From an uncultured Candidatus Saccharibacteria bacterium (GTDB taxonomy: Bacteria; Patescibacteriota; Minisyncoccia; Phycocordibacterales; DSPV01): a stretch of 64,000 nucleotides of DNA. Every line of letters starts with the position of its first letter. Within the stretch, counting starts at the first letter, position 1. Positions 19,559 to 64,000 of this stretch are shown here, one piece after another. The position numbers and the translations under genes were made by a program. Under the pieces are notes generated by a model. That model had not been told where the DNA came from and ran no database searches. It saw only the letters and a list, made by a program, of their open reading frames with translations. The stretch is taken from contig CAZTRA010000003.1 of assembly GCA_964616075.1 (NCBI GenBank), positions 26,075 through 90,074 on the forward strand, in the 5' to 3' direction.

Positions 19559-20776
19559 TCAAATTGCGTTGACTAACGAATACGTCGGCATAATCATCGC
19601 GAGCGCAAAAAACCCAACAGCTGCTCCGATAAAAATCATAAGGAATGGCTCAATAATCGAGGAAAGGTCTTTCGTTTTCTGGTCAACTTCATTCTCATAA
19701 AATGTTGCAACACCTTCAAGCATCTCCCCAAGTTTTCCTGTTTCTTCACCAATTGAAACCATCTCACCAACCAAAGGTGGATACAATTTTTCGTTTGCCT
19801 CAAAAATTGCCGCGATCGGATCACCTTTTTTAATGGCGTCTTTAGCGCTACTTAATATCTTTTTAAAGAAAATATTTTGTACAACATTTTCAGTAATCTC
19901 CATAGAAAGAACTACATCAACCCCCGCCGAAAGGAGTGAAGAAAGAGTGCGTGCGGTACGCGCAGCATTTGTTTCTTTTATTAGTACACCAATAATTGGT
20001 ATCTTTAGTAAAGCAAAATCAAAAAAACGTTTAGTTACCTTTGCTTTCGTCCCAACATACATACCAACACCAAGCAGAATCACTCCCAAAATAAAGATGA
20101 TCGTCTGTTCGCGTAAAAAATCAGAAATACCAATAATAAGCCTCGTCATCCACGGCAATTCAACATTTAATTCTTTAAACGTGGCTGTTAATGTTGGCAC
20201 AACAAACACAAGCATCAACACACCAATGAGTATCATTAAAAACATGATAACTGCCGGATACATAAGAGCCCCTCGCACTTTTTTTTGTAGTAAATACACT
20301 GCGTTCATCTGATCACTCACATTCCTGAGAGATTTAGACAAGGTACCACTCTCTTCACCGGCACGAACCATAGAAACAAAAAGGTTATTAAATACATTTG
20401 GATACTCAGCGAGCGCATCCGAAAGAGTTTTACCCTGCTTCACACGCATATTCACCTCTACCACAATGCGATTAAAACGTACCTGTCGAATTTGTCGCTC
20501 CATAACAGTCAGTGCTCGTGAAAGCGGCAATCCAGCATCCAACATGGCCCCAAGGTTACGGGCAAACACAATACGTTCGTGTAACGGAACACCGCCAAAA
20601 CGAGAAAGAATCCCTTTCAATGAAAATCGCGCGTTACTTTCAACTTCCTCAACTGAAGTTACCGCGACACCTTCCGTACGCAAACTCCGATACAATGCAA
20701 ACTTATCAATAGCCTCGCGAGTTCCTGTCGCGGCCGACCCATCACTATTTTTCCCTTTGTATATAAATTGTGGCAT
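19559..20776 (-). CDS. pilC: Type IV pilus assembly platform protein PilC (GspF family)
   Basis: 405 aa. Two GspF repeats and three TM segments. Operon position after pilB. Confidence 0.85.
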   Translation of the reverse strand: MPQFIYKGKNSDGSAATGTREAIDKFALYRSLRTEGVAVTSVEEVESNARFSLKGILSRFGGVPLHERIVFARNLGAMLDAGLPLSRALTVMERQIRQVRFNRIVVEVNMRVKQGKTLSDALAEYPNVFNNLFVSMVRAGEESGTLSKSLRNVSDQMNAVYLLQKKVRGALMYPAVIMFLMILIGVLMLVFVVPTLTATFKELNVELPWMTRLIIGISDFLREQTIIFILGVILLGVGMYVGTKAKVTKRFFDFALLKIPIIGVLIKETNAARTARTLSSLLSAGVDVVLSMEITENVVQNIFFKKILSSAKDAIKKGDPIAAIFEANEKLYPPLVGEMVSIGEETGKLGEMLEGVATFYENEVDQKTKDLSSIIEPFLMIFIGAAVGFFALAMIMPTYSLVNAI

Positions 20777-43742: not shown

Positions 43743-44744
43743 TTACGAACGTTTTTTGTTGTGAAATTTCGCGTGTACGTCTCGAAGATGTTTATCAGTT
43801 ACGTGTGTATACACCTGAGTTGTAGCGATGTGTGCATGGCCTAAAAGCGCCTGCACGCTTCGTAAATCAGCCCCGTTCGAAAGGAGATCTGTTGCAAATG
43901 TGTGACGCAGCACGTGGGGTGTTACTTTTTTACTAATGCCCGCTTTAATAGCGTAGTGTTTTACCAATCGCTCAACAGAGCGTGGGGATAGTGCAGAAGT
44001 AGCATCCTTTTTATTTTTCTGTACTGAAGGACTCCCTACCTGCACAAAAAGTGCTTCACCAAAGTCTTTTCGAGCATCGAGATACGCATGAAGCGCTTTT
44101 TTTGCCTCAGGAGAAATAAAAACGACCCGTACCTTATCTCCTTTTCCACGAACCGCACATTCATCAATCGACAAATCAATATCGCGCGGAAGCGAACATA
44201 GTTCAGACACACGCAATCCTGTTGAAAATAACAACTCCAATATCGCCCGATCACGGAGCGCTTGTATACCCGATCCCTCTGGCGCAGCCAGCAAACGCCT
44301 TAATTCAACCTCTGTAATAAGATCAAGAGATCGATCTCCCACTTTAGCAAGCTCAATACGCTCAGGCGCAAGGGCAGGGATACCACGACGCACGAGATAC
44401 TTAAGGAACGCTCGAAGTGCAATAAGATAATAATTTTGGGTTTTCTTCTTGAGAGTACCACCGCTAATTCCCGCAACAAAACGCCCAGCCGCGTTAAGTG
44501 TCAATGCACGTCGTGGATCAACCATTCGACGATTAAGTACTATGCGATAGTGTCGCATTACTTCATCAGTAATATCTTCAGGATGTTCACACTTGGTTTC
44601 TTGTAAAAAAAGAGAGAGGTACCGATCATAATTTTCGACCGTTTTAACACTTCTTCCACGTTCAATTTCAATATATTCAAGAAACTCACGCACCAACTCC
44701 TTTAAAGATCTGCTCATCGCTTCATTATAATCTATGTCGCACAA
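43743..44744 (-). CDS. xerC: Tyrosine site-specific recombinase, XerC/XerD-like
   Basis: N-terminal SAM-like domain (FLEYIEIERGRSVKTVENY). C-terminus has ALFSTGLRVSEL (R), HVLRHTFAT (H-R-H) and GHAHIATTQVYTHV (catalytic Tyr). Confidence 0.8.
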   Translation of the reverse strand: MCDIDYNEAMSRSLKELVREFLEYIEIERGRSVKTVENYDRYLSLFLQETKCEHPEDITDEVMRHYRIVLNRRMVDPRRALTLNAAGRFVAGISGGTLKKKTQNYYLIALRAFLKYLVRRGIPALAPERIELAKVGDRSLDLITEVELRRLLAAPEGSGIQALRDRAILELLFSTGLRVSELCSLPRDIDLSIDECAVRGKGDKVRVVFISPEAKKALHAYLDARKDFGEALFVQVGSPSVQKNKKDATSALSPRSVERLVKHYAIKAGISKKVTPHVLRHTFATDLLSNGADLRSVQALLGHAHIATTQVYTHVTDKHLRDVHAKFHNKKRS

Positions 44745-51174: not shown

Positions 51175-52239
51175 CTATCGAGCAAACGGATTCTTAGCAC
51201 CACGAACTTCAAAATGCAGGTGTGGTCCAGTAGAACGTCCTGTTGACCCTGAATATCCAATAAGTTGTCCTTGAGCAACCTCAACCCCTTCACGTGTCGC
51301 CAAACGATCAAGGTGCGCATACAATGTTTGAGTCCCGTTGGGATGCGCAACAACTATGTAATTTCCATAGCCACCATTCCAACCACTTCCACGAGCCACA
51401 ATAACAACACCCCCCGCCGAAGCAACGATCGTAGTGCCGCGGGGAGCTGCAAGATCAACTCCATTATATCCATGAAGACCTTGTGAAATAGTTCCACCAT
51501 ACACCGGACGAATATAATAATCACCCAAATCAGGACCACCTGCGCCACGAATTTTTGATGTAACCGTGCGCGTTACTGATGTTGTAAACATCTTTTTACC
51601 ATTAGGGACCAGAATCTCTTCCCCGAGAGCAAGCACTGAGTGAGCAGAAATATTATTAAACTGGGCAATTTCTGTTATATCCCCTTTATATTGTTTCGCA
51701 ATTGATTGCAACGTATCACCTTTCTTTACAGTATGAAGCACTCCATTAATCGGCAAAATAACCAATGTCTGACCCTCGTGAATAACCCCATTCTTAATAT
51801 CATTCGCCCAAATAACCGTATTCACAGAAACATTGAACGCAGTAGCGATTGCCGAGAGTGTATCTCCTTTACGAACCACATAGACCACAACCTGATCAGA
51901 AACCGGGGGACTATCGACTGTATCCGCAAGCGTACCCGAGGGTCCACTCTCCGGCATTAACGCTGAACCAACAATCATAATATCACCACCACCCCGCGCA
52001 AAAGATTGACTTGATGATAATACTGCTTGCAACAAAGCAAGGTTTTGAGAATTAAGGGATTCATCCAACACAGCAACTTCGAGTGTTTCTGATCGAGTTG
52101 GAGCAAAAAAATCACTAATAGCCGTCAACAATCTAGCCTCGGCCGGGAGTGCCGGGAAAAAGAACGGGATTATAAACACACCCCATACATTTTTTTTCCC
52201 AATAGCTATGTAGCGAAAGAAGAAAGATTTCATCATCAT
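51175..52239 (-). CDS. LysM-domain M23 family metallopeptidase
   Basis: N-terminal TM. Two LysM motifs (GDTLSAIA…, GDTLQSIA…). C-terminal HLD…GSTGRSTGPHLHFE M23 signature. Confidence 0.85.
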   Translation of the reverse strand: MMMKSFFFRYIAIGKKNVWGVFIIPFFFPALPAEARLLTAISDFFAPTRSETLEVAVLDESLNSQNLALLQAVLSSSQSFARGGGDIMIVGSALMPESGPSGTLADTVDSPPVSDQVVVYVVRKGDTLSAIATAFNVSVNTVIWANDIKNGVIHEGQTLVILPINGVLHTVKKGDTLQSIAKQYKGDITEIAQFNNISAHSVLALGEEILVPNGKKMFTTSVTRTVTSKIRGAGGPDLGDYYIRPVYGGTISQGLHGYNGVDLAAPRGTTIVASAGGVVIVARGSGWNGGYGNYIVVAHPNGTQTLYAHLDRLATREGVEVAQGQLIGYSGSTGRSTGPHLHFEVRGAKNPFAR

Positions 52240-52497: not shown

Positions 52498-54426
52498 TTG
52501 CTATACTTTCTGTTCGAACCAATGGAATCCTATCTTCAAGAACTCAATGAACAGCAACGTAAAGCAGTACTTACAACGACTGGACCGCTCCTTGTTGTTG
52601 CCGGAGCAGGAGCCGGTAAAACAAAAACTATTGCACATAGAATACTACATTTAGTCAAGACCTTAGTACCGGCATCTTCAATACTTGCTATAACATTTAC
52701 TAATAAAGCCGCAAAAGAGATGCGGGAGCGTGTAACAAGGTTATTAGGTGAAGAAAAAAATGGCCCAACCATAGCAACGTTTCATTCTCTAGGAGTTCGT
52801 TTGTTAAAAGAATTTGGCTCTGACATCAATATACCTCGAGGATTTGTCATCTTTGATCGTGATGACGCAAAACGAGCAATAAAAGCTGCACTTGAGTCAC
52901 TTTCAATCGACCCAAAACGATACGAGCCGGCAAAACTACTTTCCGCCATATCGAAAGCAAAAGGGGAGGGGAGAAATGCGCATGACTATCGTGCACGAGC
53001 ACAAAGTTCTTTTGGAGATATTGTCTCTCAAGTATACGCACGTTATGAGTCCATATTGAAAGAAGAAGGTGGGCTTGATTTTGATGACCTTCTACTTAAA
53101 ACAGCAGAGCTATTAAGTTCTTCAAAAAGTCGTGCAAGAGAGATACTTCTGAAACGTTTTACCCATATACATATTGATGAGTACCAGGATACTAATATGA
53201 TCCAGTATATGATCGCCAAACAACTCGTCGGCCCTGAAAAAAATATCTGTGTTGTAGGCGACAGTGATCAATCCATATATGGCTGGCGGGGTGCAAACAT
53301 ACACAACATACTAGATTTTGAAAAAGATTTTCCCGAAACAACCGTAGTACTTCTTGAACAAAATTACCGTTCTACAAAGACTATTCTTGCTGCGGCAACC
53401 GCTATTATTGAAAAAAATGAACTACGGAAAGAAAAACGACTGTTTACCAACAACACTGAAGGAGAAAAAATTGGTTTATATGTCGGATATGACGAAGAAG
53501 ATGAAGCTATGTTTGTTGCCCAAAAAACATCCGCCTACATTGCGCGAGGAGTAGCACCAGAAAATATTGCGATATTATATCGTGCAAATTTTCAATCACG
53601 TGTACTTGAACAAGCACTATTGAAAGCACATGTACCATACCAACTAGTTGGCACTCGTTTCTTTGAACGCAAAGAAGTAAAAGACGCTCTTTCATATCTG
53701 CGTCTCGCCCTACTCACAGAAAACGGTATGGACTTACGACGCGTACTTAATGTCCCCACACGAGGTCTTGGAAAAGTTACACTCCTAACCATTATCGAAA
53801 AAAGAGAGCACGAACTTTCTCCCGCAGCTACAAAAAAACTTGCAGATTTTCGAAACCTACTCCGTAGAGTGAAAGAAAAAAGTTTAACTGAATCAACATC
53901 AAAGACTGTACGCTACCTTCTTGAAGAAAGCGGCTTATTTGTACTTTATCAAAAGGGGAAAGGTGAGGATATTGAACACCTTGAAAACCTCAAGGAGTTG
54001 GTAAGTGTTGCTACACAATATGACCATTATCCTACCGGCGAAGGAATTCACCGCCTCATCGAAGATGCAGCCCTCATGAGCGACCAAGATGAACTGTCTG
54101 AGAAAAAACAGGGGGTTAAACTTATGACCATACACGCCGCCAAAGGACTCGAATTTGATATTGTATTTGTAACTGGCCTTGAAGAAGGTTTGTTCCCTCA
54201 TGACGGAAACGGGAACAAAACAAAAGAAGAACAGGAAGAAGAACGACGACTTGCCTACGTTGCAGTCACACGTTCTAAGAAAAAACTTATTCTTACTTAT
54301 GCAGGAGTACGTACAATTTTTGGCCTACGAAACACAACAGTCCCTTCAATATTCCTATCAGATATTGACGACTTACTCATTGAAGCAGAAGACTCGGGGA
54401 GTGGGTTCCATACAATTTATATGTAA
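52498..54426 (+). CDS. pcrA: UvrD/PcrA/Rep family ATP-dependent DNA helicase
   Basis: 642 aa. Walker A AGAGAGKTKTI, TFHSLG, DEYQDTN and the C-terminal helicase motifs. Confidence 0.85.
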   Translation: MLYFLFEPMESYLQELNEQQRKAVLTTTGPLLVVAGAGAGKTKTIAHRILHLVKTLVPASSILAITFTNKAAKEMRERVTRLLGEEKNGPTIATFHSLGVRLLKEFGSDINIPRGFVIFDRDDAKRAIKAALESLSIDPKRYEPAKLLSAISKAKGEGRNAHDYRARAQSSFGDIVSQVYARYESILKEEGGLDFDDLLLKTAELLSSSKSRAREILLKRFTHIHIDEYQDTNMIQYMIAKQLVGPEKNICVVGDSDQSIYGWRGANIHNILDFEKDFPETTVVLLEQNYRSTKTILAAATAIIEKNELRKEKRLFTNNTEGEKIGLYVGYDEEDEAMFVAQKTSAYIARGVAPENIAILYRANFQSRVLEQALLKAHVPYQLVGTRFFERKEVKDALSYLRLALLTENGMDLRRVLNVPTRGLGKVTLLTIIEKREHELSPAATKKLADFRNLLRRVKEKSLTESTSKTVRYLLEESGLFVLYQKGKGEDIEHLENLKELVSVATQYDHYPTGEGIHRLIEDAALMSDQDELSEKKQGVKLMTIHAAKGLEFDIVFVTGLEEGLFPHDGNGNKTKEEQEEERRLAYVAVTRSKKKLILTYAGVRTIFGLRNTTVPSIFLSDIDDLLIEAEDSGSGFHTIYM

Positions 54427-54448
54427 TGATGTACGTGCCACCTAAAGA

Positions 54449-55333
54449 TTGATACACTCGATATTACCAAACATGACTACACAAGAAACACCATTTGAAC
54501 CTGCAAAAAAATCCTTGGGGCAACACTTTCTCACCAACCCTGCCATTGCCACCAGTATCACCGAAGCAGCAGAAGTATCATCTCGAGACACTGTTGTTGA
54601 GATTGGACCTGGAAGAGGCATACTCACCAAAGCACTGATTCCCGTGGCACGAGATATAATTGCAATTGAAAAAGATGAGCGCCTCTTATTTCGTTTGTCG
54701 TTCGACTTTAAAAAAGAAATTACTGAAAAAAAACTTATTCTAATAAGAGATGACGCCCTCAATTTTAATCCTCAACAATACCATCTCCAACCAAGGGGGT
54801 ATAAACTTGTCGCTAATATTCCGTACTACATTACTGGTGCAATTATCAGAAAATTCCTTGGAGAACCAACATACCCAAATACCATGACACTCATGATTCA
54901 AAAAGAGGTTGCCGATCGTATTGTTGCAAAGAAAAAAAAGGAAAGCCTCCTCTCTATTGCTGTAAAAGTGTACGGTGAACCACGCTACATACAGACAATA
55001 AAAGCGGGAGCATTTTCACCTCCTCCTTCAGTTGATTCGGCAATCATTTCAATAAAAAATATCTCTCACGAGTATTTTAAAACAACTGACTCGAATATAT
55101 TTTTTACCATTGTACGTACAGGTTTTGCCCAAAAAAGAAAACAGCTTATTTCAAATCTATCCCGTATCATTGATAAAAACTACGTGCGCATAGCCCTGCA
55201 ATCAGCAACATTACCAGAAAATATTCGCGCTGAGGACGTGTCTCTTGAAAATTGGAAAATAATTATCTCCCAACTTGTTCCTTATTTTAAAAAAGAAACC
55301 ACGTTACAATCCAAAACCCCTCATATACTCTGA
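54449..55333 (+). CDS. rsmA: 16S rRNA (adenine1518/1519-N6)-dimethyltransferase RsmA/KsgA
   Basis: Contains LGQHFL, VVEIGPGRGILT and NIPYYIT. Confidence 0.85.
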   Translation: MIHSILPNMTTQETPFEPAKKSLGQHFLTNPAIATSITEAAEVSSRDTVVEIGPGRGILTKALIPVARDIIAIEKDERLLFRLSFDFKKEITEKKLILIRDDALNFNPQQYHLQPRGYKLVANIPYYITGAIIRKFLGEPTYPNTMTLMIQKEVADRIVAKKKKESLLSIAVKVYGEPRYIQTIKAGAFSPPPSVDSAIISIKNISHEYFKTTDSNIFFTIVRTGFAQKRKQLISNLSRIIDKNYVRIALQSATLPENIRAEDVSLENWKIIISQLVPYFKKETTLQSKTPHIL

Positions 55334-56556
55334 CCGTACAATGTCGGAAGTGAACCCATTATAGTAAAACAGGTGATACCTGCATATACGGCACAAATAC
55401 CGGCCGCTGGAGTAAATAACCCTAAATAAAATCCTCCTGGTACTGTAGAACCCGTAATTGGCACAAAACCTGGAGGAAAATAAACCAAACCACCACCGCC
55501 ACTACCACCAAAAAGAGTAAGAAGATTGAGAGTACCTCCTCCGCAGGTACAGACCATAACAATCGACGCATTAAGTCCACCTCCTGAAAGCTGAGCTTCT
55601 GCCTTTTGTGGAACCACACTTACACGAGAAAAAAGTTTTGTTGTGTTTTCGAAAAATCCACTCAATCCACCTTCAAACAGAACATGTCGGGCGGCACGTA
55701 ATAATAATTTTTGATTTTCTGTAGATCCGTTACTATTACTAACACTCACATGAAACAAATCATCAAGATCGTAGAGTGATTTACCGTTTTTTGCCAACAT
55801 GGTCGCTAAATCAACTTCATTTTTCATATCCTTATATGGCCGTACCACATCCTCAAGCGTTGCTCCTGCCGCTCGAACAGGTGTCTCTATTTGAGACAAA
55901 ATATCAGTCGGAAGGGCTCGCAATTCTTCAAGTGTCATCGTACGAGCAACAGGGGCCTTATATTGAAATACGATCGTTTTCCCATCAACAGAAGGAATAT
56001 TCTCAAATGTTCGTACCAAAAGACCAGAACCGATATCTATTTTGTTACCTGTTGGAGTAAAACCGTCACCGGTAATAGTCACCATATCTCCTGAGCGCAC
56101 TCGGGTAGGTGAAATAGCTGTTATCACAATTTTTTTTGAAGTAGTTGCCGTCTTCATTTCTGATAGCTTTGTTTTTATGGGTTTAGTTTCACCCTGTGTC
56201 ACAATCGAAGTAATAAACCGTTGTTCAAAACTTTGCAATTTTGCCCGCGTTAATGTGCCCACATATCCCGTAGCGGTAACCAGACCAGCAGGATCTAAAA
56301 TCTCCTTTTTATACTTATTCTGAAAACGAACAACTGCATCATTCGTTCGTGTACCAAAATAATCAGTTTCTTGCCCTGGAGAACCTGGGCCAGAAGAAGT
56401 AACATATGTATCAGGATCTGTATTAAGGACTATCTGTAACGCGCGGACATCTGGCCCACGATCACCAATTTTTAAATTCCGCACAAACGCCGCCTCTGTA
56501 ACAAAAGGAAGTACTATAACGCACCACAGGAAAACAAGAACAATAACACGCTTCAT
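55321..56556 (-). CDS. Secreted protein with peptidoglycan-binding (PG_binding_1-like) domain, Ig-like segment and Gly/Cys-rich hydrophobic C-terminus
   Basis: Signal peptide. LKIGDRGPDVRALQIVLN…FGTRTNDAVVRFQ matches PG-binding. The C-terminal 90 aa are Gly-rich with CTCGGG. Confidence 0.45.
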   Translation of the reverse strand: MKRVIVLVFLWCVIVLPFVTEAAFVRNLKIGDRGPDVRALQIVLNTDPDTYVTSSGPGSPGQETDYFGTRTNDAVVRFQNKYKKEILDPAGLVTATGYVGTLTRAKLQSFEQRFITSIVTQGETKPIKTKLSEMKTATTSKKIVITAISPTRVRSGDMVTITGDGFTPTGNKIDIGSGLLVRTFENIPSVDGKTIVFQYKAPVARTMTLEELRALPTDILSQIETPVRAAGATLEDVVRPYKDMKNEVDLATMLAKNGKSLYDLDDLFHVSVSNSNGSTENQKLLLRAARHVLFEGGLSGFFENTTKLFSRVSVVPQKAEAQLSGGGLNASIVMVCTCGGGTLNLLTLFGGSGGGGLVYFPPGFVPITGSTVPGGFYLGLFTPAAGICAVYAGITCFTIMGSLPTLYGQSI

Positions 56557-56633
56557 AAGAATATTTTATTATTCTACCTCTAAACTGTTTGAAATTCGAT
56601 AAAGGAAAGTGATAAAAAGGGTATAATGCTAGT

Positions 56634-57584
56634 ATGAAGGGAAAACTTATACTTACCTCAATACTTATTGGTATATTTTTTGTCACCGGAGCATTATTTA
56701 TCACCGCGATTAATGGTACAGCCACCACACAGTCCACCGAGACGCAACACGCTGTTTTAGACAAGACCGCACAAGCATTCGCTGCAACTTATGAAGATAG
56801 TGATAGTGATGATTTATCAGATTGGGAGGAGCGTTTATGGAAAAGCGATCCTTTAAAATCAGATACTGATGGCGATGGAACAAATGATGGTGAGGAAATT
56901 AAACAAAAACGAGACCCGACAACAGCTGGGCCACAAGACACTATAAGCTCACTCATAGCCAGCTCTACAAACAAAACAAAAAGTGTTGAAGAATCTCCTT
57001 TTATGAAAGGTTCTTTTGCTGAATCATTCGCACAAACATACATTGCTATGGGACAAGGGGCCCCGTGGTCAGAAAAACAAAAAATTGAACTTGCGGAAAA
57101 GCTGCTAACAGAAATACAAGGAAACGATGTTTTACAAACCAAAAAGGTTCTCTCTTTACAACAACTCACGCGCACTGATAGTAATACACAGCAGTCATAT
57201 GGCGCATATGCATCGGGATTTAAAGAGCGCCTGAAAGAGAATCGCCCAACAGAGCCAGAAAATGAAGCAGTAGTATTACAACGAGGGCTTGAAACAAAAA
57301 ACCGTATTGATTTTGAAAAATTAGGAGCAATTGCTCTCTCCCACGAGAAAACTGCAGACGCGTTATCTCTACTTCCCACACCATCAGGGCTTGCCGTTGT
57401 TCACCTTGAACTCATTAACGCTTTCTATGATATTTCAATCGCAGTCTATGGAATGCAACGTGCTCAAAATGACCCCATTGCTGGACTTGCTGGAATTCAA
57501 CGGTATGCTCCTGCACAACAACGACTTGCCGCGGCTTTGATATCTTTAAACAACGAACTTAAGAAGAACGGCGTATCATTGTAA
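56634..57584 (+). CDS. Hypothetical membrane-anchored protein with Asp-rich calcium-binding-like repeat
   Basis: N-terminal TM. DSDSDDLSDWEERLWKSDPLKSDTDGDGTNDGEE. No other known domain. First ORF upstream of the T4SS-like operon. Confidence 0.45.
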   Translation: MKGKLILTSILIGIFFVTGALFITAINGTATTQSTETQHAVLDKTAQAFAATYEDSDSDDLSDWEERLWKSDPLKSDTDGDGTNDGEEIKQKRDPTTAGPQDTISSLIASSTNKTKSVEESPFMKGSFAESFAQTYIAMGQGAPWSEKQKIELAEKLLTEIQGNDVLQTKKVLSLQQLTRTDSNTQQSYGAYASGFKERLKENRPTEPENEAVVLQRGLETKNRIDFEKLGAIALSHEKTADALSLLPTPSGLAVVHLELINAFYDISIAVYGMQRAQNDPIAGLAGIQRYAPAQQRLAAALISLNNELKKNGVSL

Positions 57585-57648
57585 GACACTTACAAAAACA
57601 GTAATACACAACTAGAAAAAATTAGGACACCTCATCGAGGTATAATGA

Positions 57649-59937
57649 GTGGTGCATTTCATGAGAGCGCTCCTAACATTGGCGAAGGATTTACTAAGAC
57701 ATATCAATCTTTCTGCATTGATGGTCCTTGTTTTTCTTTTTTCGGCAATAATGTGTAATCCAAAATCGGTCCTTGCTGGTTTTGTTCCAGTATTAGACAG
57801 CGCGGTTGTTGCAGAACTCTCAGCGCTTAATGCCATACAAGCAGAGCAGGCTGCCATGAGTACGCAACTCACCTTAAAAGAAATTTTGCTTGACGGTGTT
57901 GTATTCGGACTTATTAACACTTTAATTGATCAATTAGGAAACGAGGTGGTCAACTGGATTAATAGTGGTTTTGAAGATACTCCAATGTTTGTTCAGGATC
58001 CTGGAGGGTTTATGTTAAATGCAGCAGATCAAGCCAGTGGCAGACTCATCGCCGAAATGGGTCTTGAAAACTTTATCTGTGACCCTTTCATGCTTCCCTC
58101 ATTACAACTTGCACTGAACCTAAATTTCGGCGTAAACACCGGACGTTGGCAAAGAGATTACTACTGTACATTTAGTCGAGCAAAAAATATTCACTCAGAA
58201 ACCTTTATGAGGGGTGATTTTGCTGGTGGTGGAGGATGGGACGCGTGGGTTGATATGTCAGTCCGAAATCAAAATGTAATCGGTGCATCAGGTGCTGCTG
58301 GCCTTATGATGGATAGACGTATCGCTACAATTCTTGGCATAGAGCAAGATAAGCTCAACTGGAATAAAGGCTTCTTCTCTGCGACAAATATTGAAGGCTA
58401 TATCAAAACACCTGGAACTGTCATTGAAAACAAATTAAACGACACCTTTGATTCAAGTTCACGTCGTATTGAGGTTGCTGATGAAATCAGTGAAATCATT
58501 GGGGCTCTCATTAATTTAGCAATGAAGAGCCTTATGACCGGCCTCGCATCAAACAGCAGCTCAGCTACCAACTACAGCGCTCAATACAGCGCTAATACCA
58601 CCTATTCAACCACTGATTACCAAAACCTTAAAGGAAGTGGTGTGTTATTACCTCCAGAGACTACGTCTAGCAATATACCAACATTCAGTGGAGGGCCCGC
58701 TGTAAACCAGATTTATGCGCAATCAAATTATCAGGGTCCTTTAATACATGACGACCATGGATGGCCAAACCGTATCCAATACGCAAGCCTCGCTACTGAT
58801 GGTAACAAAAATGCCCAGATGTATTATTCGAGCATGTCATACAACAACGACCCTACCGGAATGGCGTGGTGGAAGGGTGTTTTTGAAACAAGACAAAATT
58901 TTAGTGAATTAAAAATAACAACCGCACTTGATTACTACGATAGTCGTGATTGGAAGAATTGGGTTCGAACGGACAACTTACGACCTCGTTTTTATACCAT
59001 AAACCAAAATTCTGGTATTGAAACTGAAGTAGTTAACACAAAAGACGCTTCAGGAAATGTGGTCCCCATCACGTGTCGCATCCATTACATAAATTCGAGT
59101 GGAAATCCAGCAACTACCGCGGGTTGCATTTTACCTCTTTTGCGTGTTGAATCATTTCGTATAGAACTCGTTCACCCCGTATCAGCTGATGTGGTGCGCA
59201 TCGAACGTCCAAGATACCTCGCTTTAAACGAAATTGAGTTCTTTAGAAGAAGTGGTCCCTCATTTTTGGCGTCACAAAGCACTTCCACAACCATCGGATC
59301 AGTATTTAATCCATTCTTTGGTATTTCAGCTAAAGATATAAATGGTGTCGCAATACCAATAACCGCGGCTGTCACTGCTCCTTTTGCAAGCACTAGCTAT
59401 CTTACATATGCCCCTGATGGAACTATTCGACCGTTTATGTTAAACAACGGTAATATTGTTTCTTCTTCAAACACCCTAGGAAACTGGCGCTTTGTATACC
59501 TGGCAAGTGACGCGTACGGCATATTATCACAACCTATGGAGCGTATCATTACAGTTCGAGCACAAGCGACCGCCTCAAGAAAAGAACCTCTTATACTGAT
59601 TGACGGATCAATCCCAACCGCAACACAAACTATTGACATAAGTGGGCAATCAATGCTTGTTGCGATCGGCGATTCACTTACTATCACCAGGGGAGATTCT
59701 TTTGACCCGTTCCAAAAAATAAGCGCTCGTGACGCCGAGGGTACTTCCTATTCCGACTCAACAGTTCCGGGCATCCGAGTTACGTACTCTCGAAACGCCC
59801 CGGGCAGTAACACCTTTCTCTATGAGACCATATTTGATAGCAACAAACCGGGCACGTGGCGTGTCATTTTCGACTTTACTGATCGTTACGGCGCCACCGC
59901 ACTCCCAGTACTGCGAAGTGTGGTAGTAAACCCATAA
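57649..59937 (+). CDS. Large membrane-anchored surface protein (762 aa) with discoidin-like and Ig-like (DUF5011-type) C-terminal domains
   Basis: N-terminal TM. LALNEIEFF is a galactose-binding-like (discoidin) signature. The last ~110 aa resemble a bacterial Ig-like domain. Sits 1 bp upstream of the VirB6-like gene. Confidence 0.5.
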   Translation: MVHFMRALLTLAKDLLRHINLSALMVLVFLFSAIMCNPKSVLAGFVPVLDSAVVAELSALNAIQAEQAAMSTQLTLKEILLDGVVFGLINTLIDQLGNEVVNWINSGFEDTPMFVQDPGGFMLNAADQASGRLIAEMGLENFICDPFMLPSLQLALNLNFGVNTGRWQRDYYCTFSRAKNIHSETFMRGDFAGGGGWDAWVDMSVRNQNVIGASGAAGLMMDRRIATILGIEQDKLNWNKGFFSATNIEGYIKTPGTVIENKLNDTFDSSSRRIEVADEISEIIGALINLAMKSLMTGLASNSSSATNYSAQYSANTTYSTTDYQNLKGSGVLLPPETTSSNIPTFSGGPAVNQIYAQSNYQGPLIHDDHGWPNRIQYASLATDGNKNAQMYYSSMSYNNDPTGMAWWKGVFETRQNFSELKITTALDYYDSRDWKNWVRTDNLRPRFYTINQNSGIETEVVNTKDASGNVVPITCRIHYINSSGNPATTAGCILPLLRVESFRIELVHPVSADVVRIERPRYLALNEIEFFRRSGPSFLASQSTSTTIGSVFNPFFGISAKDINGVAIPITAAVTAPFASTSYLTYAPDGTIRPFMLNNGNIVSSSNTLGNWRFVYLASDAYGILSQPMERIITVRAQATASRKEPLILIDGSIPTATQTIDISGQSMLVAIGDSLTITRGDSFDPFQKISARDAEGTSYSDSTVPGIRVTYSRNAPGSNTFLYETIFDSNKPGTWRVIFDFTDRYGATALPVLRSVVVNP

Positions 59938-59938
59938 C

Positions 59939-62041
59939 ATGAATATTTTTCTCACAAAAATAAAACAAGTGCGCACTTTCATACTCGGAATTCTTTTTTG
60001 TGCCTTAGCTCTAAGCCCAACTTCAGTCTTTGCTAACGCAGGATTTGTACCATTCGGCATTGAATGGATTGGGATCCCTTCTGCTATTGGTACCGCCATC
60101 ACCGCAGGTCTTTCATCTGCGGGAGACCTGATTATAGAAGCAGCTGCACTAAAGCTTTCAAGTCTTGCTGGTTTCTTGGTATGGCTTTCAGGAAAAATGC
60201 TTGATTGGATTGTAAATTTTACCATTATTGAAGGTGTCTCTTTATTAAACAATACTGGTATGTCAGGAGCCATTAATGAAACGTGGGTTGTCTTCCGTGA
60301 TCTGGGCAACATGTTCTTCATCTTTATTATCCTCTATTTGGCATTCCAACTCATTTTGGGTATCGGCAGCGGACACTGGCGCTCATTGGGATGGATTATT
60401 GTTATGGCTCTCGTCATAAACTTTTCTCTTTTCTTCACGAAAGTGATCATAGATACCTCCAACCTTCTCGCACTGACCTTCTACGAACCAGTATTTAAAG
60501 CAAAAGGGGGCGTAGCATTTACCTTCATGAGTCAGTTAGGGCTACAAACAATCTGGAATATTAACGACGCGAATTCGGTTGCTTCTCTTTTTGGAGCAAA
60601 TCAAACATCTGCGGGGAACAAAATTATTGTTCTTCTTGGCGCAACAACACTATCAGTTATTGTTGCCTTTATTTTCTTTGCCCTTTCAATATTACTTATT
60701 GTACGTTTTGCCTACCTCATTTTTTTGATGATTTTTTCTCCTCTTGCCTTTGCGTGCTATGTCATACCAGGAGCACGAGGCTATTTTGGCCAATGGTGGA
60801 ATAAACTTATTCAACAGGCATTTTTTGCTCCCGCCGTCTTTCTACTCCTTTTTGTTTCCTTCAAAATACTTGGTGGTGTTGTGACAACATTAGGAAATTT
60901 GGGAAGTTTTGGATCACTTCTAGTAACATTCGACTCAAAATCATTGCCTATTCTGTTTAACTTTGGACTTACTATCGTTATGTTCCTCTATTCACTCACC
61001 CTTGCTATGAATATGGGTATGGTGGGAGCACAAACAACCATCGCGTGGGGCAAGTCTCTCAACACACGATTCAATAAAAGCCTTAAGTCTGGGGGTTCGT
61101 TTATTGGAAGAAATACCGTGGGAGCTTTGGCGCGCTACGCATCGGAACAAGAGGGGGTAAAAAGGTTTGCGCGCATTAGCCCAACAACCGGCCAACTTAT
61201 GTATGACGGTCTCAACAAGTTGCAGGGGGTTGGGGGTAAGGGAAAAACATTGGCCGACGTTGAGGACGAGGCTGTTAAAAAACAGACCAAATTCATTGGG
61301 TGGGCAACATCTTCAGCCCCAATTAGACCAAAATGGTTTTCAAACCTGACACCTGAAGAAAAAGGTGAACAAAAACCAGAAGAAAAACTCTCAAACCAAG
61401 AAACAGCAGCACTTACCGCCCTTAAAGAGCACTCTGGGGCAGTAGCCAGGGAACGTTCCACCGCTCAGGCAAAATTAAGCGAACTCAAAGCTGAACAAAA
61501 AATTATCCAGGATCGACTCACACTCATTAAAACAAACCCTCTTAAAGCAGCTACCGATTACGCCGCTGATCTTCCTGTTGGAAAAAACTTAGGTCAACTT
61601 CAGTCAGAATTAGAGACACGGGCACAAACACTGATTACATCCATCACTGATATGGAAAAACACAGCAACGATTTACAAGAATCTCTCGCGGTTGCCGAAG
61701 GGCGTAAGCAAGATCTTATCGCTCGAGGACAATCCCGACTAGATGATGAAAAAAGAGCGGGGGACAGAAAAGATGAGGAACAAAAAGAAAAACTTGATGA
61801 AATAGGTAAAAGAATGGGCACATCAGTGTCTCCACAAACCAGAGCATTGTGGAAAAAGTCTTTTGATACCTATAGTGATGGGATAAAAAAGAGACAAAAC
61901 AAAAAGAAACAGCAACAAAACAAGAGTACAAATAATACAGGGGAGGTCTTGAATATAAATGACATAGATTCGTTTGAAGATTTACCTGAAGAAATTCAAG
62001 ATCTTGCAAAAAAGGCATTAGATAAGAACAAAACCACGTAA
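59939..62041 (+). CDS. Polytopic membrane protein with VirB6/TrbL-like topology and long Lys/Glu-rich coiled-coil C-terminal tail
   Basis: 700 aa. Signal peptide, ~100-aa extracytoplasmic segment, 5-6 TM helices, then ~300 aa of charged coiled-coil. Gene order before PrgI-like and VirB4-like ORFs mirrors PrgH. Confidence 0.45.
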   Translation: MNIFLTKIKQVRTFILGILFCALALSPTSVFANAGFVPFGIEWIGIPSAIGTAITAGLSSAGDLIIEAAALKLSSLAGFLVWLSGKMLDWIVNFTIIEGVSLLNNTGMSGAINETWVVFRDLGNMFFIFIILYLAFQLILGIGSGHWRSLGWIIVMALVINFSLFFTKVIIDTSNLLALTFYEPVFKAKGGVAFTFMSQLGLQTIWNINDANSVASLFGANQTSAGNKIIVLLGATTLSVIVAFIFFALSILLIVRFAYLIFLMIFSPLAFACYVIPGARGYFGQWWNKLIQQAFFAPAVFLLLFVSFKILGGVVTTLGNLGSFGSLLVTFDSKSLPILFNFGLTIVMFLYSLTLAMNMGMVGAQTTIAWGKSLNTRFNKSLKSGGSFIGRNTVGALARYASEQEGVKRFARISPTTGQLMYDGLNKLQGVGGKGKTLADVEDEAVKKQTKFIGWATSSAPIRPKWFSNLTPEEKGEQKPEEKLSNQETAALTALKEHSGAVARERSTAQAKLSELKAEQKIIQDRLTLIKTNPLKAATDYAADLPVGKNLGQLQSELETRAQTLITSITDMEKHSNDLQESLAVAEGRKQDLIARGQSRLDDEKRAGDRKDEEQKEKLDEIGKRMGTSVSPQTRALWKKSFDTYSDGIKKRQNKKKQQQNKSTNNTGEVLNINDIDSFEDLPEEIQDLAKKALDKNKTT

Positions 62042-62045
62042 TACT

Positions 62046-62807
62046 ATGCCAAACGATCTCATCACTATTGTCCGAGAAAATATCACCCATGGACCAAGTG
62101 ATATTCAGCTACTCGTCACGGCACCAGAAATAGACCGTGTACCACAATCTATTGGACAAAAATACATGTTTGATCAGGAGGATACTCTGATTATAAAAAA
62201 TGCCGCAATTTTAACACTTGCTGGTATATTACCTCCACAAGATATCCCCGCGCACCTCAGTGATGTATTAAACTTATCCAATGCTCAATCACGAGAGATC
62301 GCCGAAGAGCTTGATATGAAATTATTTGCAAGAGTCAGAGTATCTCTTGATAGTCTCTATTCAAATATTGAGTTAAAAAAACCTGAGTTGATACTCCCTC
62401 CACCTCCACCTCCGCCACCAGCTGCACGCCGCGCAATTCCCACACACACCATCGTTTCCACACCCAACAATCAATCTGTACGTCCTGTAGATATCAATAC
62501 TGGTATACAAACAACAATCAAAACAATTACCCCTTTGCCGAAACCTACCTTACAAACAAACACTGATACACAAATTAAAAAAACACCTTTTAACACACCA
62601 GCTCTCACGTTGCCCACTACTCCACCTGCGACCTCTGATAACATGGGAACAAAGGGGTCTTCCATAAACACCGACCTTAGTGATGATATTTTATCTGCAA
62701 AACTTTCAAAACCTATAAATAATCCTTCATCAAACGAAAAAGCAATTGGTAAAGGATTAAAAGCTCGCACTTATCACATTGACCCCTATAGAGAACCCGT
62801 GGAATAG
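62046..62807 (+). CDS. Hypothetical proline-rich protein (PPPPPPPP tract)
   Basis: 253-aa ORF within the operon. Low-complexity Pro/Thr-rich centre. Confidence 0.4.
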   Translation: MPNDLITIVRENITHGPSDIQLLVTAPEIDRVPQSIGQKYMFDQEDTLIIKNAAILTLAGILPPQDIPAHLSDVLNLSNAQSREIAEELDMKLFARVRVSLDSLYSNIELKKPELILPPPPPPPPAARRAIPTHTIVSTPNNQSVRPVDINTGIQTTIKTITPLPKPTLQTNTDTQIKKTPFNTPALTLPTTPPATSDNMGTKGSSINTDLSDDILSAKLSKPINNPSSNEKAIGKGLKARTYHIDPYREPVE

Positions 62808-62847
62808 ACACCCCACAAAACATTTCACATGTTAAAATGGTGTTATT

Positions 62848-63288
62848 GTGCGATTTCAAGTACCCCAATATATCGAAGTTGAAGATAAAATTTTTGGGCC
62901 ATTAACACTCAAACAATTTTTGTATCTTATTGGTAGTGGCGGCATGGCATTCGTTGCTTACCGTTTTCTTGGTTTATTTATAGGTTTACTTATTGGTATT
63001 CCTATTCTTATTTTTGGTTTACTTCTTGCGTTCTATAAACACAACCACAAACCATTTGTGTTTTTAGTGGAAGCTGCACTTAGATACACCGCTAAACAAA
63101 AACTTTATCTCTGGAGAAAAATTGATAAACCCACTATTAGCCAGCAATCTTCAAATTCCCAAACACCGCTCTTTGTTCCAAAATTGTCACAAGATAAACT
63201 AAAAGATGTAACATGGGGCATAGCTACAAAAGAAAATATTTTAACCGAGCACGCTCCAGGAAAAAACATCTCTTCAACACAGATATAA
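62848..63288 (+). CDS. PrgI-family (VirB3-like) two-TM protein
   Basis: 146 aa. N-terminus QVPQYIEVEDKIFGPLTLKQFLYL is followed by two TM helices, matching the PrgI pattern (…VPKD…E.KIFGLTLRQF). Confidence 0.5.
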   Translation: MRFQVPQYIEVEDKIFGPLTLKQFLYLIGSGGMAFVAYRFLGLFIGLLIGIPILIFGLLLAFYKHNHKPFVFLVEAALRYTAKQKLYLWRKIDKPTISQQSSNSQTPLFVPKLSQDKLKDVTWGIATKENILTEHAPGKNISSTQI

Positions 63289-63292
63289 TCTT

Positions 63293-63910
63293 ATGGCACT
63301 AAAAGCAAATCCTTCTCAAAAATTTGTTCCTTTAAAAGAAATACGGGATGGTATCGCAACACTTAACGATGGTGGGTTGCGAGCGGTGCTTATGACGTCT
63401 TCTATTAATTTCGCCCTCAAATCAACAGAAAACCAGGAGGCGATTATTCTTCAATTTCAAAACTTTTTAAACTCTCTTGATTTCTCACTACAAATCGTTA
63501 TCCAGTCTCGTCGACTCGACATACGACCTTATATTGCGCTTTTAAATGAAAGAAAAAAAGCCCAAACAAATGAATTAATGAAACTCCAAATAAATGAGTA
63601 TATGGAGTTCATTACATCATTCACAGAAGCGACAAATATTATGACCAAAAGCTTTTTTGTAATCGTCCCCTACACACCCACCCTTCAAATCGCCCCCTCT
63701 ATCGGTTTATTTGGAAAGAAAAACGATAATGAAGATACAAAAAAAATAACCCCCTTTGAGGAGGGTCGCTCTCAACTTGAACAACGTATGTCAGTAGTTG
63801 AACAAGGATTAGCCCGTTGCGGTTTGCGCGTTGTTCGTTTAGGAACCGAAGAAGCAACTGAACTTTTTTATCGACTTTTTAATCCAGGAGAGAAAGAAAA
63901 ATCTCTTTAA
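63293..63910 (+). CDS. VirB4/TrbE N-terminal-domain-like protein (ORF terminates after 205 aa. The ATPase domain may be in the next ORF.)
   Basis: FVPLKEIRDGIATLNDGGLRAVLMTSSINFALKSTENQEAIILQFQNFLNSLDFSLQIVIQSRRLD resembles the conserved N-terminal region of Gram-positive VirB4-like ATPases (PrgJ/TcpF type). Confidence 0.4.
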   Translation: MALKANPSQKFVPLKEIRDGIATLNDGGLRAVLMTSSINFALKSTENQEAIILQFQNFLNSLDFSLQIVIQSRRLDIRPYIALLNERKKAQTNELMKLQINEYMEFITSFTEATNIMTKSFFVIVPYTPTLQIAPSIGLFGKKNDNEDTKKITPFEEGRSQLEQRMSVVEQGLARCGLRVVRLGTEEATELFYRLFNPGEKEKSL

Positions 63911-63924
63911 TACATCTTATCTAT

Positions 63925-64000
63925 ATGGGATTTCTTGATGCGATATTTAACAAAAAAACTACCGAGGGTAGTACACCAATTCCTTTATTACCACAGGAAG
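63925..64000 (+). CDS. Start of next ORF in the operon (truncated by window end). Possibly the continuation or ATPase part of the VirB4-like protein.
   Basis: ATG at 63925 lies 15 bp after the preceding stop. MGFLDAIFNKKTTEGSTPIPLLPQE. Only 25 codons visible. Confidence 0.25.
   Translation, partial: MGFLDAIFNKKTTEGSTPIPLLPQE

Follow-up and report, generated by a model that had tools for sequence, protein, structure and literature searches.

The last part of the DNA stretch analysed here (64,000 nucleotides in total, referred to as the window) carries a compact gene cluster resembling a type IV secretion system (T4SS), which raises the question whether it encodes a conjugation apparatus, a DNA-uptake machine, an attachment organelle or, as the initial annotation proposed, the best candidate in the window for an undescribed system. 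Seven co-oriented genes, designated A to G, were found; six are complete, and the seventh leaves the window (Table 1). The six complete ORFs lie where they had been placed originally, and the distances between the cluster ORFs as first stated are indeed 64, 1, 4, 40, 4 and 14 bp. For gene B a length of 762 aa had been assumed, but ATG 57661 is the most likely start because an identical database protein (P0241) comprises 758 aa and orthologues comprise 757–763 aa. The distance between genes A and B thus becomes 76 bp, and the gaps in the cluster range from 1 to 76 bp. The region 53290–63998 runs collinear with L001, a metagenomic contig of independent origin, at 78% nucleotide identity, and proteins A–F share 65–92% identity with their orthologues on this contig. 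Genes A–F are therefore genuine genes rather than chance ORFs.

Table 1. Coordinates of the genes and candidate promoter boxes of the cluster.
Feature	Coordinates	Strand	Length (aa)	Description
GGTATAAT box	56620..56627	+		candidate -10 element, 7 nt 5' of gene A ATG
Gene A	56634..57584	+	316	first gene of the cluster, conserved
TATAAT within GAGGTATAAT	57641..57646	+		candidate promoter for gene B, 14 nt 5' of ATG 57661
Gene B	57661..59937	+	758	candidate tip adhesin; ORF opens at GTG 57649
Gene C	59939..62041	+	700	VirB6/TrbL-like polytopic membrane protein ("extended VirB6")
Gene D	62046..62807	+	253	proline-rich, conserved cluster component
Gene E	62848..63288	+	146	PrgI/VirB3-family small membrane protein
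Gene F	63293..63910	+	205	stand-alone TrsD-type protein, homologue of the extreme VirB4 N-terminus; PF26593 TraC-like (source annotation)
Gene G	63925..64000	+		VirB4-type ATPase, first 25 codons only, cut at the window end

The box 5' of gene A is a candidate promoter -10 element, in which case the transcript leader would be very short or absent; it is kept in L001 despite varying flanks. The TATAAT before gene B, likewise kept in L001, may represent a second promoter. An exact TATAAT not more than 40 nt from the start codon was observed for 6 of 47 genes, compared with about 0.5 expected.

The products of genes E, F and G connect the cluster with T4SSs. Gene E was confirmed as a member of the PrgI/VirB3 family by its match to PF12666 (PrgI; E 1.7e-9), which at 38.5 bits exceeds the Pfam cut-off of 27. 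Its product has one 35-residue hydrophobic hairpin (span 31–65), shares 47% identity with the L003 orthologue and is expected to anchor VirB4 at the membrane. Gene F had been regarded as the opening part of a long ORF for VirB4; the resemblance to the VirB4 N-terminus held, but the gene is separate and complete with its own stop codon. It matches positions 102–233 of the NCBIfam model VirB4_plasma (E 1.1e-10), positions 3–115 of CD1110 VirB4 (E 1e-6) and TrsD/TraD (E 4e-4); a profile search of the PDB returned no VirB protein by sequence. More than 8,000 homologues exist, and the 120 matches listed span 202–247 aa and carry PF26593. The protein is soluble and very strongly conserved, with 52 of its 205 columns invariant across 35 homologues of 60–92% identity. 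As its sequence does not resemble the N-terminal part of the ATPase that follows, gene F is a split piece of VirB4 and not a paralogue. The truncated gene G (MGFLDAIFNKK...) aligns with the beginning of a 613-aa L001 protein, which matches P-loop_TraG (2.4e-27), AAA_10, DUF87, the VirB4 structure 4ag5 (E 1.5e-43) and TrwK (1e-7). This orthologue contains Walker A (AKSGSGKS) and Walker B (LLVIDE) motifs, so that an ATPase does follow downstream, its ATPase domain lying outside the window.

In the product of gene C, a signal peptide (residues 11–34) precedes a stretch of about 85 residues that contains one long helix. Six hydrophobic helices lie between residues 121 and 364, and a charged coiled-coil tail of 335 residues is cytoplasmic. 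The large extracytoplasmic loop proposed in the initial annotation was overstated, since only one loop of about 50 residues occurs among the hydrophobic helices. The assignment as VirB6-like is supported by structure comparison, in which the model superposes on TrwI, with weak Foldseek E-values (0.015); a Pfam search gave no TrbL match, and a profile search of the PDB found no VirB protein by sequence. Together, PrgI, the homologue of the VirB4 N-terminus, the VirB6-like protein and the adjacent ATPase bear out the original view of a T4SS-like cluster of the Gram-positive type.

Gene B, which in the window and in the loci of relatives always lies directly 5' of the VirB6-like gene, encodes a signal or anchor, a conserved cysteine-containing extracytoplasmic N-domain of about 330 aa, an F-type-lectin/CBM32-like beta-sandwich and two Ig-like domains. 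The N-domain family is very widespread (6,273 representative clusters at E ≤ 1e-3) and has invariant residues C140 and C169; the C-terminal tail is variable across the family. The predicted structure of the C-terminal half (pLDDT 70–90) matches Ig-like adhesin and S-layer domains as well as fucose-binding/CBM32 modules, and the profile matches fucolectins (2j22, E 8e-4). Relatives of B match DUF4141 (12 of 48) and TrbJ (11 of 48), in each case only across about 35 N-terminal residues; the protein from the window itself has no match to either family, and a profile search of the PDB retrieved no VirB protein by sequence. With this motif in relatives and lectin-like and Ig-like modules at its own C-terminus, B may be regarded as a candidate stalk or tip adhesin of the VirB5/TrbJ type.

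Two further genes are conserved partners. The product of gene A begins with a hydrophobic span (residues 3–30) serving as membrane anchor or signal, followed at residues ~54–95 by an acidic thrombospondin-type-3-like calcium-binding repeat, which matches PF18884 (TSP3_bac) at E 0.005, under the Pfam cut-off, and also the CglD/MtsD repeats; its conserved C-terminal domain looks helical by composition. Orthologues occupy the same slot in L001 (81% identity), L003 (30%, E 4e-30), L004 and L007, and size-matched genes (284–291 aa) are found there in L005, L008 and L009. The proline-rich gene D had been described as preceding the VirB6-like gene; it actually lies between this gene and prgI, as do its orthologues in L001, L003 and L007 and a size-matched L008 gene which aligns with them. 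It consists of a conserved N-domain of about 105 aa, a PPPPPPPP linker, a low-complexity P/T/S/Q region and a C-terminal DPYRE that is invariant in the comparison of L001, L003, L007 and L008. The protein is presumably cytoplasmic; a hydrophobicity scan revealed no signal peptide or transmembrane span, and profile searches including Pfam found no family match.

The order A-B-VirB6-D-PrgI-TrsD-VirB4 recurs in four further lineages (L001, L003/L004, L007 and L008/L009), two of which are represented by a second contig, and was partial in one additional search. The accessory genes can thus not be called atypical. Across loci with kept order protein identity falls to 23–30%, and the cluster retains its place after a LysM-M23 gene, uvrD and rsmA and before jag; this common position by the origin region despite such low identity argues for vertical inheritance. 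In relatives, gene G is followed by genes for a small membrane protein, a secreted beta-rich protein, a VirB2-like pilin and a membrane-anchored beta-rich protein, then jag; only the L001 locus reaches further, to yidC, rnpA, dnaA and dnaN. The pilin, dnaA and the remaining downstream genes are hence placed by reference to relatives, the closest of which shows 78% nucleotide identity. As had been noted initially, no relaxase or coupling protein was seen in the window (ORFs of at least 330 aa and ten shorter ORFs scanned), and none was found in the 20-kb loci of relatives; within the cluster no VirB8-like or VirB1-like gene was recognised. Outside the cluster the window consists of housekeeping sequence. 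All named homologues belong to Patescibacteria, Parcubacteria or Paceibacterota.

Taken together, the region very probably represents the upstream half of the origin-proximal chromosomal T4SS typical of Patescibacteria, in its Paceibacteria/Parcubacteria arrangement. It is related to the conjugation machines of monoderms (MPF-FATA), whose DNA-processing parts it has lost. As the system has already been described (PMC12102498, PMC10633639, PMC12857230) and its gene order is common to four further lineages, it is not an undescribed system. Patescibacteria T4SSs have been reviewed (PMC12857230), and Quinonero-Coronel et al. (2025) reported TrsD, PrgI, VirB6 and a VirB2-like pilin, no relaxase, and a position close to dnaA and ksgA in Paceibacteria; in many genomes they located VirD4 homologues at a distance from virB4 (PMC12102498), and here too a coupling protein may lie elsewhere in the genome. 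Southlakia epibionticum ML1 cannot grow epibiotically without its T4SS (Wang et al. 2023, PMC10633639).

By analogy and from one saccharibacterial Tn-seq study, which form the basis for cargo, transport direction and pilus formation, a mechanism can be proposed. Protein E would tether a VirB4 hexamer (F and G) below an oligomer of the VirB6-like protein C in a single membrane, and VirB4 would power both the extraction of the VirB2-like pilin and its polymerisation to form a short pilus or conduit. B may be located on this structure or at its end, with its N-domain membrane-proximal and its lectin-like and Ig-like modules exposed, and bind the host cell surface. Such a machine would more likely support a host-dependent lifestyle through contact together with either secretion of proteins into the host or uptake of host-derived molecules. 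As relaxase and coupling protein are missing, relaxase-piloted DNA is probably not what is transported.

The surface modules of B, the VirB2-like pilin in the clusters of relatives and the lack of a substrate-recruiting ATPase nearby would also suit an organelle for attachment only, in which a VirB4-driven pilus and B hold the cell on its host without translocation. We regard this as unlikely, because the VirB6-like channel with its large cytoplasmic tail and the terminal motif of D are strongly conserved, and pilus assembly alone would seem to need less; besides, for adhesion there is already the type IV pilus encoded in the window.

The initial annotation correctly placed a split ComEC, ComM, RecJ and a type IV pilus operon in the window and suggested DNA uptake. 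A machine of the ComB type (Helicobacter pylori) would supply ComEC with DNA from the host or the environment, to be scavenged for nucleotides or used in transformation. ComB systems are not known to have a relaxase or coupling protein, a trait the cluster shares. T4SS loci of the class ABY1 co-localise with comF, recG and radA (PMC12102498). This explanation is nevertheless quite improbable: the competence genes of the window lie 4–57 kb from the cluster and none inside it, and with type IV pili plus ComEC the canonical route of uptake is already complete. Southlakia owes its competence to type IV pili and loses it, with viability unaffected, when comEC is deleted, whereas the T4SS is essential (PMC12857230, citing Wang 2023).

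The cluster could also be read as the mating-pair-formation module of an integrative conjugative element or conjugative plasmid that transfers DNA from cell to cell in the manner of pCF10 or pIP501. The order VirB6-like, PrgI and VirB4 with a TrsD-type gene as in monoderm conjugation systems and a tyrosine recombinase gene (43743–44744) point that way, but this reading is largely refuted and hardly credible given that no relaxase or coupling protein was found in the 64 kb of the window or the 20-kb loci of relatives, and given the housekeeping flanks, the vertical inheritance, an unremarkable GC content and the position of the recombinase gene 12 kb from the cluster amid housekeeping genes.

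The patescibacterial T4SS encoded here shares with MPF-FATA systems the order VirB6-like, VirB3-like and VirB4 (PrgH-PrgI-PrgJ of pCF10; compare TrsC-TrsD-TrsE of pGO1/pSK41), and with pGO1 a stand-alone TrsD homologous to the VirB4 N-terminus. In contrast to these systems, the cluster contains no relaxase, coupling protein, PrgK/TrsG-type hydrolase, PrgL-type VirB8 or PrgB homologue, has the additional gene D between VirB6 and PrgI, and is chromosomal and vertically inherited; moreover, relatives of the window possess a VirB2-like pilin, which monoderm conjugation systems do not. With the VirB/Trb stalk (TrwJ-TrwI; TrbJ-TrbL) it shares the superposition of C on TrwI and the TrbJ/DUF4141 N-terminal motif in relatives of B, a likeness to TrbJ of about 35 residues that is undetectable for the B protein of the window; to TrwJ there is none. 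The N-domain of B (~330 aa) exceeds a whole VirB5 (~220–250 aa), and B adds lectin and Ig modules. B directly precedes C, much as the VirB5 homologue of R388 and R751 precedes the VirB6 homologue, in those systems with a small lipoprotein gene between the two. An outer-membrane complex is absent.

Southlakia epibionticum ML1 (SEML1_0006-0019), the only relative with functional data, shares VirB4 (DUF87), a hypothetical upstream gene, PrgI, VirB6-like proteins, PF18895 pilins and a cluster without relaxase or coupling protein. This member of the Saccharimonadia, a different class, is laid out differently, with a pair of VirB6-like genes, an NTF2/VirB8-like gene and six pilins in an array; searching its supplementary annotation by keyword gave no VirB5- or TrbJ-named entry. 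From the Paceibacteria arrangement (PMC12102498) there is no essential difference: both have a separate TrsD-type gene directly 5' of virB4, PrgI/VirB3, VirB6, a VirB2-like pilin (PF18895, here in relatives), no nearby relaxase or coupling protein and a chromosomal location by ksgA (rsmA), rnpA, dnaA and dnaN. In that study VirB5 was reported for none of the Patescibacteria clade and only for one genome with an MPF-T type VirB4, and neighbouring "grey" genes were left unassigned with no adhesin reported (PMC12102498). The present comparison shows A, B and D to be constant parts of the cluster, with adhesin-type modules in B. Possibly novel beyond the 2023–2025 papers is therefore this surface protein, which may be the missing tip adhesin.

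The six complete plus-strand ORFs and the intergenic gaps described in the initial annotation were both borne out by the ORF list, and a seventh gene, G, begins at the 3′ end of the window. Positions 53290–63998 are collinear at 78% nucleotide identity with L001, an independent metagenomic contig, and this conservation, extending to the encoded proteins, identifies A–F as real genes. For gene B, the ATG at 57661 is the more likely start because an identical database protein comprises 758 aa. Exact DNA searches of genome and metagenome collections gave no match that would extend the contig; gene content beyond base 64000 was taken from relatives.

Features of the T4SS-like cluster and its surroundings, with protein identities to L001 and to the orthologues of the distant locus L003 (BLASTP of window or L001 proteins against L003)
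Feature	Position	Strand	Product	Identity to L001 (%)	Identity to L003 (%)
ComEC, metallo-beta-lactamase part	5327-6229	minus
Fe/Mn superoxide dismutase gene	6294-6893	plus
ComEC, DUF4131 and Competence part	6895-8448	minus
Type IV pilus operon, pilin-like	17761-19557
Type IV pilus operon, PilC	19559-20776
Type IV pilus operon, PilB	20782-22542
InlB B-repeat protein	24040-28656	minus	1,538 aa
LysM + M23 peptidase gene	51175-52239	minus
rsmA (ksgA)	54449-55333
PG_binding_1-like protein	55321-56556	minus	411 aa
TATAAT box of cluster	56620-56627
Gene A	56634-57584	plus	316 aa	81	30
TATAAT box of cluster	57641-57646
Gene B	57649-59937	plus	762 aa (758 aa from ATG 57661)	85	29
Gene C, VirB6-like	59939-62041	plus	700 aa	72	29
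Gene D	62046-62807	plus	253 aa	65	23
DPYREPVE of D	62781-62807
Gene E, PrgI/VirB3	62848-63288	plus	146 aa	81	47
TATAAT box of cluster	63284-63289
Gene F, TrsD-type	63293-63910	plus	205 aa	92	57
Gene G, VirB4	63925-64000	plus	first 25 codons; ORF continues past window end		73 (L001 protein)
~341-aa protein			~341 aa		29
Pilin					31
~444-aa protein			~444 aa		30

The cluster had been regarded as one operon. In agreement with this, scans of its intergenic gaps revealed no plus-strand terminator, but conserved TATAAT boxes are located upstream of A and B, so that a single operon is not demonstrable; the candidate promoter boxes are GGTATAAT. An exact TATAAT at most 40 nt upstream of the start was found for 6 of the 47 window genes (about 0.5 expected), three of these six within the T4SS cluster, and near-consensus −10 boxes directly precede the start codons of many other window genes. 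Shine-Dalgarno-like motifs at most 20 nt from the start occur in only 2 of the 47 genes. This pattern suggests that leaderless or short-leader mRNAs are widespread in the window.

The remainder of the window is ordinary chromosome encoding EF-G, RNase H, RecJ, PGK, TIM, NusA, trigger factor, RNase Y, CCA-adding enzyme, a Xer-type recombinase, PNPase, ComM, a LysM-M23 peptidase, UvrD and RsmA. The ComM, RecJ, split ComEC and type IV pilus operon noticed previously are all present, ComEC being divided in two by a superoxide dismutase gene. A gene located about 1.5 kb upstream of the pilus operon, past an unannotated plus-strand ORF, encodes a protein whose six InlB B-repeat (Flg_new_2) domains are divergent; this is probably another surface or adhesion protein. 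Divergent from gene A, a further gene encodes a protein with a signal peptide, a PG_binding_1-like N-terminus (endolysin-type matches) and an odd glycine-/cysteine-rich hydrophobic C-terminus; the close relatives L001 and L007 share this gene, and the distant loci lack it.

Using a close homologue of F (P0002) and close and distant relatives of B as queries, we found related loci in L001, L003/L004, L007, L008/L009 and, partially, L005. Their common order is a LysM-M23 gene (minus strand), uvrD and rsmA, followed by an A-like gene, a B-like gene, a VirB6-like gene (678–798 aa), a D-like gene (201–248 aa), PrgI, a TraC-like/TrsD gene and VirB4 (604–622 aa); two to four more genes then lead to jag. 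The PF18895 VirB2-like pilin is encoded three to four genes past virB4 in L001, L003/L004 and L007, and L001 continues beyond jag with yidC, rnpA, dnaA and dnaN. The LysM-M23 gene precedes uvrD-rsmA and the cluster in the window as well as in L003–L005, L007 and L008, on the strand opposite to the cluster and at a distance of two to four genes that varies with the locus. Its product could be a cell-wall-remodelling partner (VirB1 analogue), or the arrangement could reflect mere conserved synteny.

As the gene order is kept and orthology to L003 was found gene by gene, A, B and D belong to the cluster as constant components and are not oddities of this genome; the previous description of accessory genes as atypical is therefore not upheld. 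Judged from the identities to L003, the cytoplasmic motor is slow-evolving and the exposed parts evolve fast. The Paceibacteria version of the system thus has a fixed gene set, seven genes within the window and about eleven in the closest relatives, which includes the three unannotated components A, B and D.

Among the core components, E was recognised as PrgI/VirB3, as initially proposed, by a match to PF12666 (PrgI; E 1.7e-9, 38.5 bits compared with a gathering cut-off of 27). The protein has one 35-residue hydrophobic hairpin, and its gene is located two places before virB4.

The first 100 aa of F had been likened to the N-terminus of VirB4-type ATPases. Similarity to VirB4 N-termini was indeed found, as F matches positions 102–233 of 894 of the Mbov_0397 VirB4 model (E 1.1e-10) and positions 3–115 of 752 of the CD1110 VirB4 model (E 1e-6), in both cases N-terminal parts only; F is, however, a complete, separate protein ending 14 bp before virB4, and the ATPase is encoded by the next ORF. 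A further match of F is to the TrsD/TraD family of staphylococci (E 4e-4). It has more than 8,000 homologues; the 120 matches listed comprise 202–247 aa, their source annotation is PF26593 ‘TraC-like’, and every source-given name among them is patescibacterial. Within an alignment of 35 homologues (60–92% identity), 52 of 205 columns are invariant. Because comparison of F with the N-terminus of the downstream ATPase revealed no similarity, a paralogue of that N-terminus is ruled out and we assign F as a split-off, TrsD-type piece of VirB4. Searches of PDB sequences with F alone and with its profile returned nothing relevant. In PHROGs, F matches the N-terminus (positions 6–89 of 555) of phrog_2666 with E 3.7e-7; this phage ‘terminase large subunit’ family is probably mis-named or VirB4-like.

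The assignment of G as VirB4 rests on its 25 window codons, which match the start of a 613-aa L001 protein, and on this orthologue. The latter carries the ATPase domain expected of the downstream ORF, with matches to P-loop_TraG (E 2.4e-27), AAA_10 and DUF87, the Walker A motif AKSGSGKS and the Walker B motif LLVIDE. It is also similar to the VirB4 structure 4ag5 (E 1.5e-43) and to TrwK of R388 (E 1e-7).

Gene C itself matches no Pfam or NCBIfam model, and its profile retrieved only coiled-coil proteins from PDB sequences, via its tail. At the family level, 13 of 65 relatives match PF04610 (TrbL/VirB6; best E 8.4e-8). A Foldseek search of the AF2 model of C, whose membrane core reached pLDDT values of 85–96, against 350,542 PDB chains gave TrwI/VirB6 of R388 as all of the best five matches (E 0.015–0.13). 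Alignment of the C family with TrwI by hhalign yielded E 7.8e-4 at a probability of only 25%, and with TrbL of R751 it was negative. The predicted topology begins with a signal peptide and about 85 residues outside the cytoplasm; six helices follow, and a coiled-coil tail of 335 residues lies in the cytoplasm. Fold prediction and the TrbL matches of the family thus identify C as a VirB6-like protein of the ‘extended VirB6’ kind. The polytopic architecture, signal peptide and cytoplasmic tail described earlier are retained, but the large external loop is not.

The product of A carries a membrane anchor and an acidic repeat of the thrombospondin-type-3-like kind. Its conserved C-terminal domain appears helical by composition, and a VirB8-like nature of A found no support. 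D has no membrane segment; it consists of a conserved N-domain of about 105 residues and a proline-rich low-complexity stretch, and it terminates in a DPYRE motif (DPYREPVE here) that is invariant in the L001, L003, L007 and L008 orthologues despite an overall identity of only 23–25%. The motif was not found elsewhere in the window or the related loci, and it resembles a short docking motif. One distant lineage has an additional 119-aa gene between D and prgI within the cluster (L003/L004, 14283–14642); its product matches 23S_rRNA_IVP and weakly bAvd, an accessory protein type of diversity-generating retroelements.

Neither B nor D matches Pfam or NCBIfam models, and a PHROGs scan of B, C and D gave spurious or weak matches only. 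The representative clusters matched by a profile of B relatives number 6,273 at E≤1e-3; with a limit of E≤1e-30 there are 3,925. All of the 163 sampled members share an N-domain of about 330 residues with invariant cysteines, followed by C-terminal tails that span 2–732 residues; clustering by sequence of the 113 tails with at least 100 residues gave 34 clusters. The modelled C-terminal half of B (AF2 pLDDT 70–90) matches Ig-like modules found in adhesins and in S-layer proteins as well as fucose-binding/CBM32 modules, and the B profile independently matches fucolectins in PDB (2j22, E 8e-4). These C-terminal modules are thus predicted to be lectin-like and Ig-like. Apart from fucolectins, the search of B profiles against PDB gave only a marginal ClpS match, taken as chance, and no VirB5.

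The N-domain of B is predicted to be helical only at low confidence (AF2 pLDDT <50, 21-sequence alignment). In 12 of 48 B relatives, 35 residues following the signal peptide match Pfam DUF4141, once above the cut-off (33 bits compared with 30); the same residues match NCBIfam TrbJ in 11 of the 48 (positions 12–50 only), TrbJ_Ti in six and VirB5 in one. The B protein of the window itself matches none of the DUF4141, TrbJ and VirB5 models. With hhalign, the B family aligned to TrbJ of R751 over the same short stretch of 34 columns (E 4.8e-4, probability 32%), and nothing was found with TrwJ of R388. Gene B ends 1 bp before C, and its adjacency to virB6 is kept in all related loci; likewise, R388 and R751 encode their VirB5 homologue just before VirB6. 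In the CTnDOT gene order, the place beside traJ is that of traI. DUF4141 proteins adjoin traJ, a VirB6 homologue, in Bacteroides conjugative transposons (PMC10434189), and a homology to VirB5 was reported for the TraI protein of CTnDOT (PMC4027160).

The gene before VirB6 shows features expected of a host-binding tip protein, and we tentatively regard B as a candidate adhesin of VirB5-like type, at the tip or in the stalk, although the similarity is confined to a short motif in its relatives. B may belong to a very large unannotated patescibacterial family, which might possibly provide the missing VirB5-type stalk/tip protein of the system and serve as its adhesin as well. The constant N-domain, with a motif that would be common to TrbJ and to the Bacteroidetes DUF4141 proteins next to traJ, may attach to the pilus or to the oligomer of VirB6, and the exchangeable lectin/Ig modules fused to it would determine the host recognised. 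No adhesin was reported in PMC12102498, which mentions VirB5 only for one genome with an MPF-T-type VirB4, and keyword look-ups in the supplementary tables of Wang 2023 (PMC10633639) gave no entry for VirB5 or TrbJ. That B is a modular, VirB5-like protein of host recognition is one hypothesis worth following up. If true, VirB2-like and VirB5-like parts would be combined for the first time in a monoderm system, namely in patescibacterial T4SSs, and host range could be read from B, which would make it possible to predict and test the host specificity of mostly unculturable organisms.

With the parts list and its conservation established by sequence comparison, the R388 architecture and the cited reviews suggest an arrangement in which PrgI would anchor the VirB4 hexamer, formed by F plus G, beneath the VirB6 oligomer, VirB4 would feed the VirB2-like pilin into a pilus or conduit, and B would provide host binding. 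That the cluster serves adhesion only appears unlikely. A ComB-like DNA uptake apparatus is less probable still: comEC deletion abolishes competence and not viability in Southlakia (PMC12857230), and therefore the essential role of the T4SS does not run through ComEC. As noted before for the window, neither a relaxase nor a coupling protein was found in the 64 kb, nor in the flanks of the relatives' loci, which makes conjugative DNA an unlikely cargo; the missing relaxase and the chromosomal synteny across distant lineages leave a conjugative element hardly any probability.

The conjugative monoderm T4SSs of the MPF-FATA type (pCF10, pIP501, pGO1) encode a relaxase and a VirD4/TcpA-type coupling protein, neither of which was found here. 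Their operons also include a VirB1-type hydrolase and a VirB8-like protein, whereas family scans revealed no VirB1-type hydrolase or VirB8-like (NTF2) domain in A–F or the downstream L001 genes. For Patescibacteria, a VirB4 clade related to MPF-FATA was described whose commonest associated component is TrsD; PrgI/VirB3, VirB6 and VirB2-like pilins also occur in it, relaxases are nearly absent, and the Paceibacteria cluster is located near dnaA, dnaN, rnpA and ksgA (PMC12102498). The locus studied here shares with this clade a TrsD-type gene adjacent to virB4 (F), PrgI/VirB3 and VirB6 genes nearby, the lack of a neighbouring relaxase or coupling protein, and the proximity to ksgA and, via L001, to dnaA and rnpA. 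Epibiotic growth was shown to require the saccharibacterial counterpart, in which no coupling protein or relaxase is recognisable either (PMC10633639). The initial annotation was right about the core T4SS identity, but the system is not undescribed, because PMC12102498, which describes exactly such a system, PMC10633639 and PMC12857230 already cover it. The locus adds no new kind of system; a large share of uncultivated bacteria encode this T4SS, and no other T4SS is known to be indispensable for the growth of its bearer.
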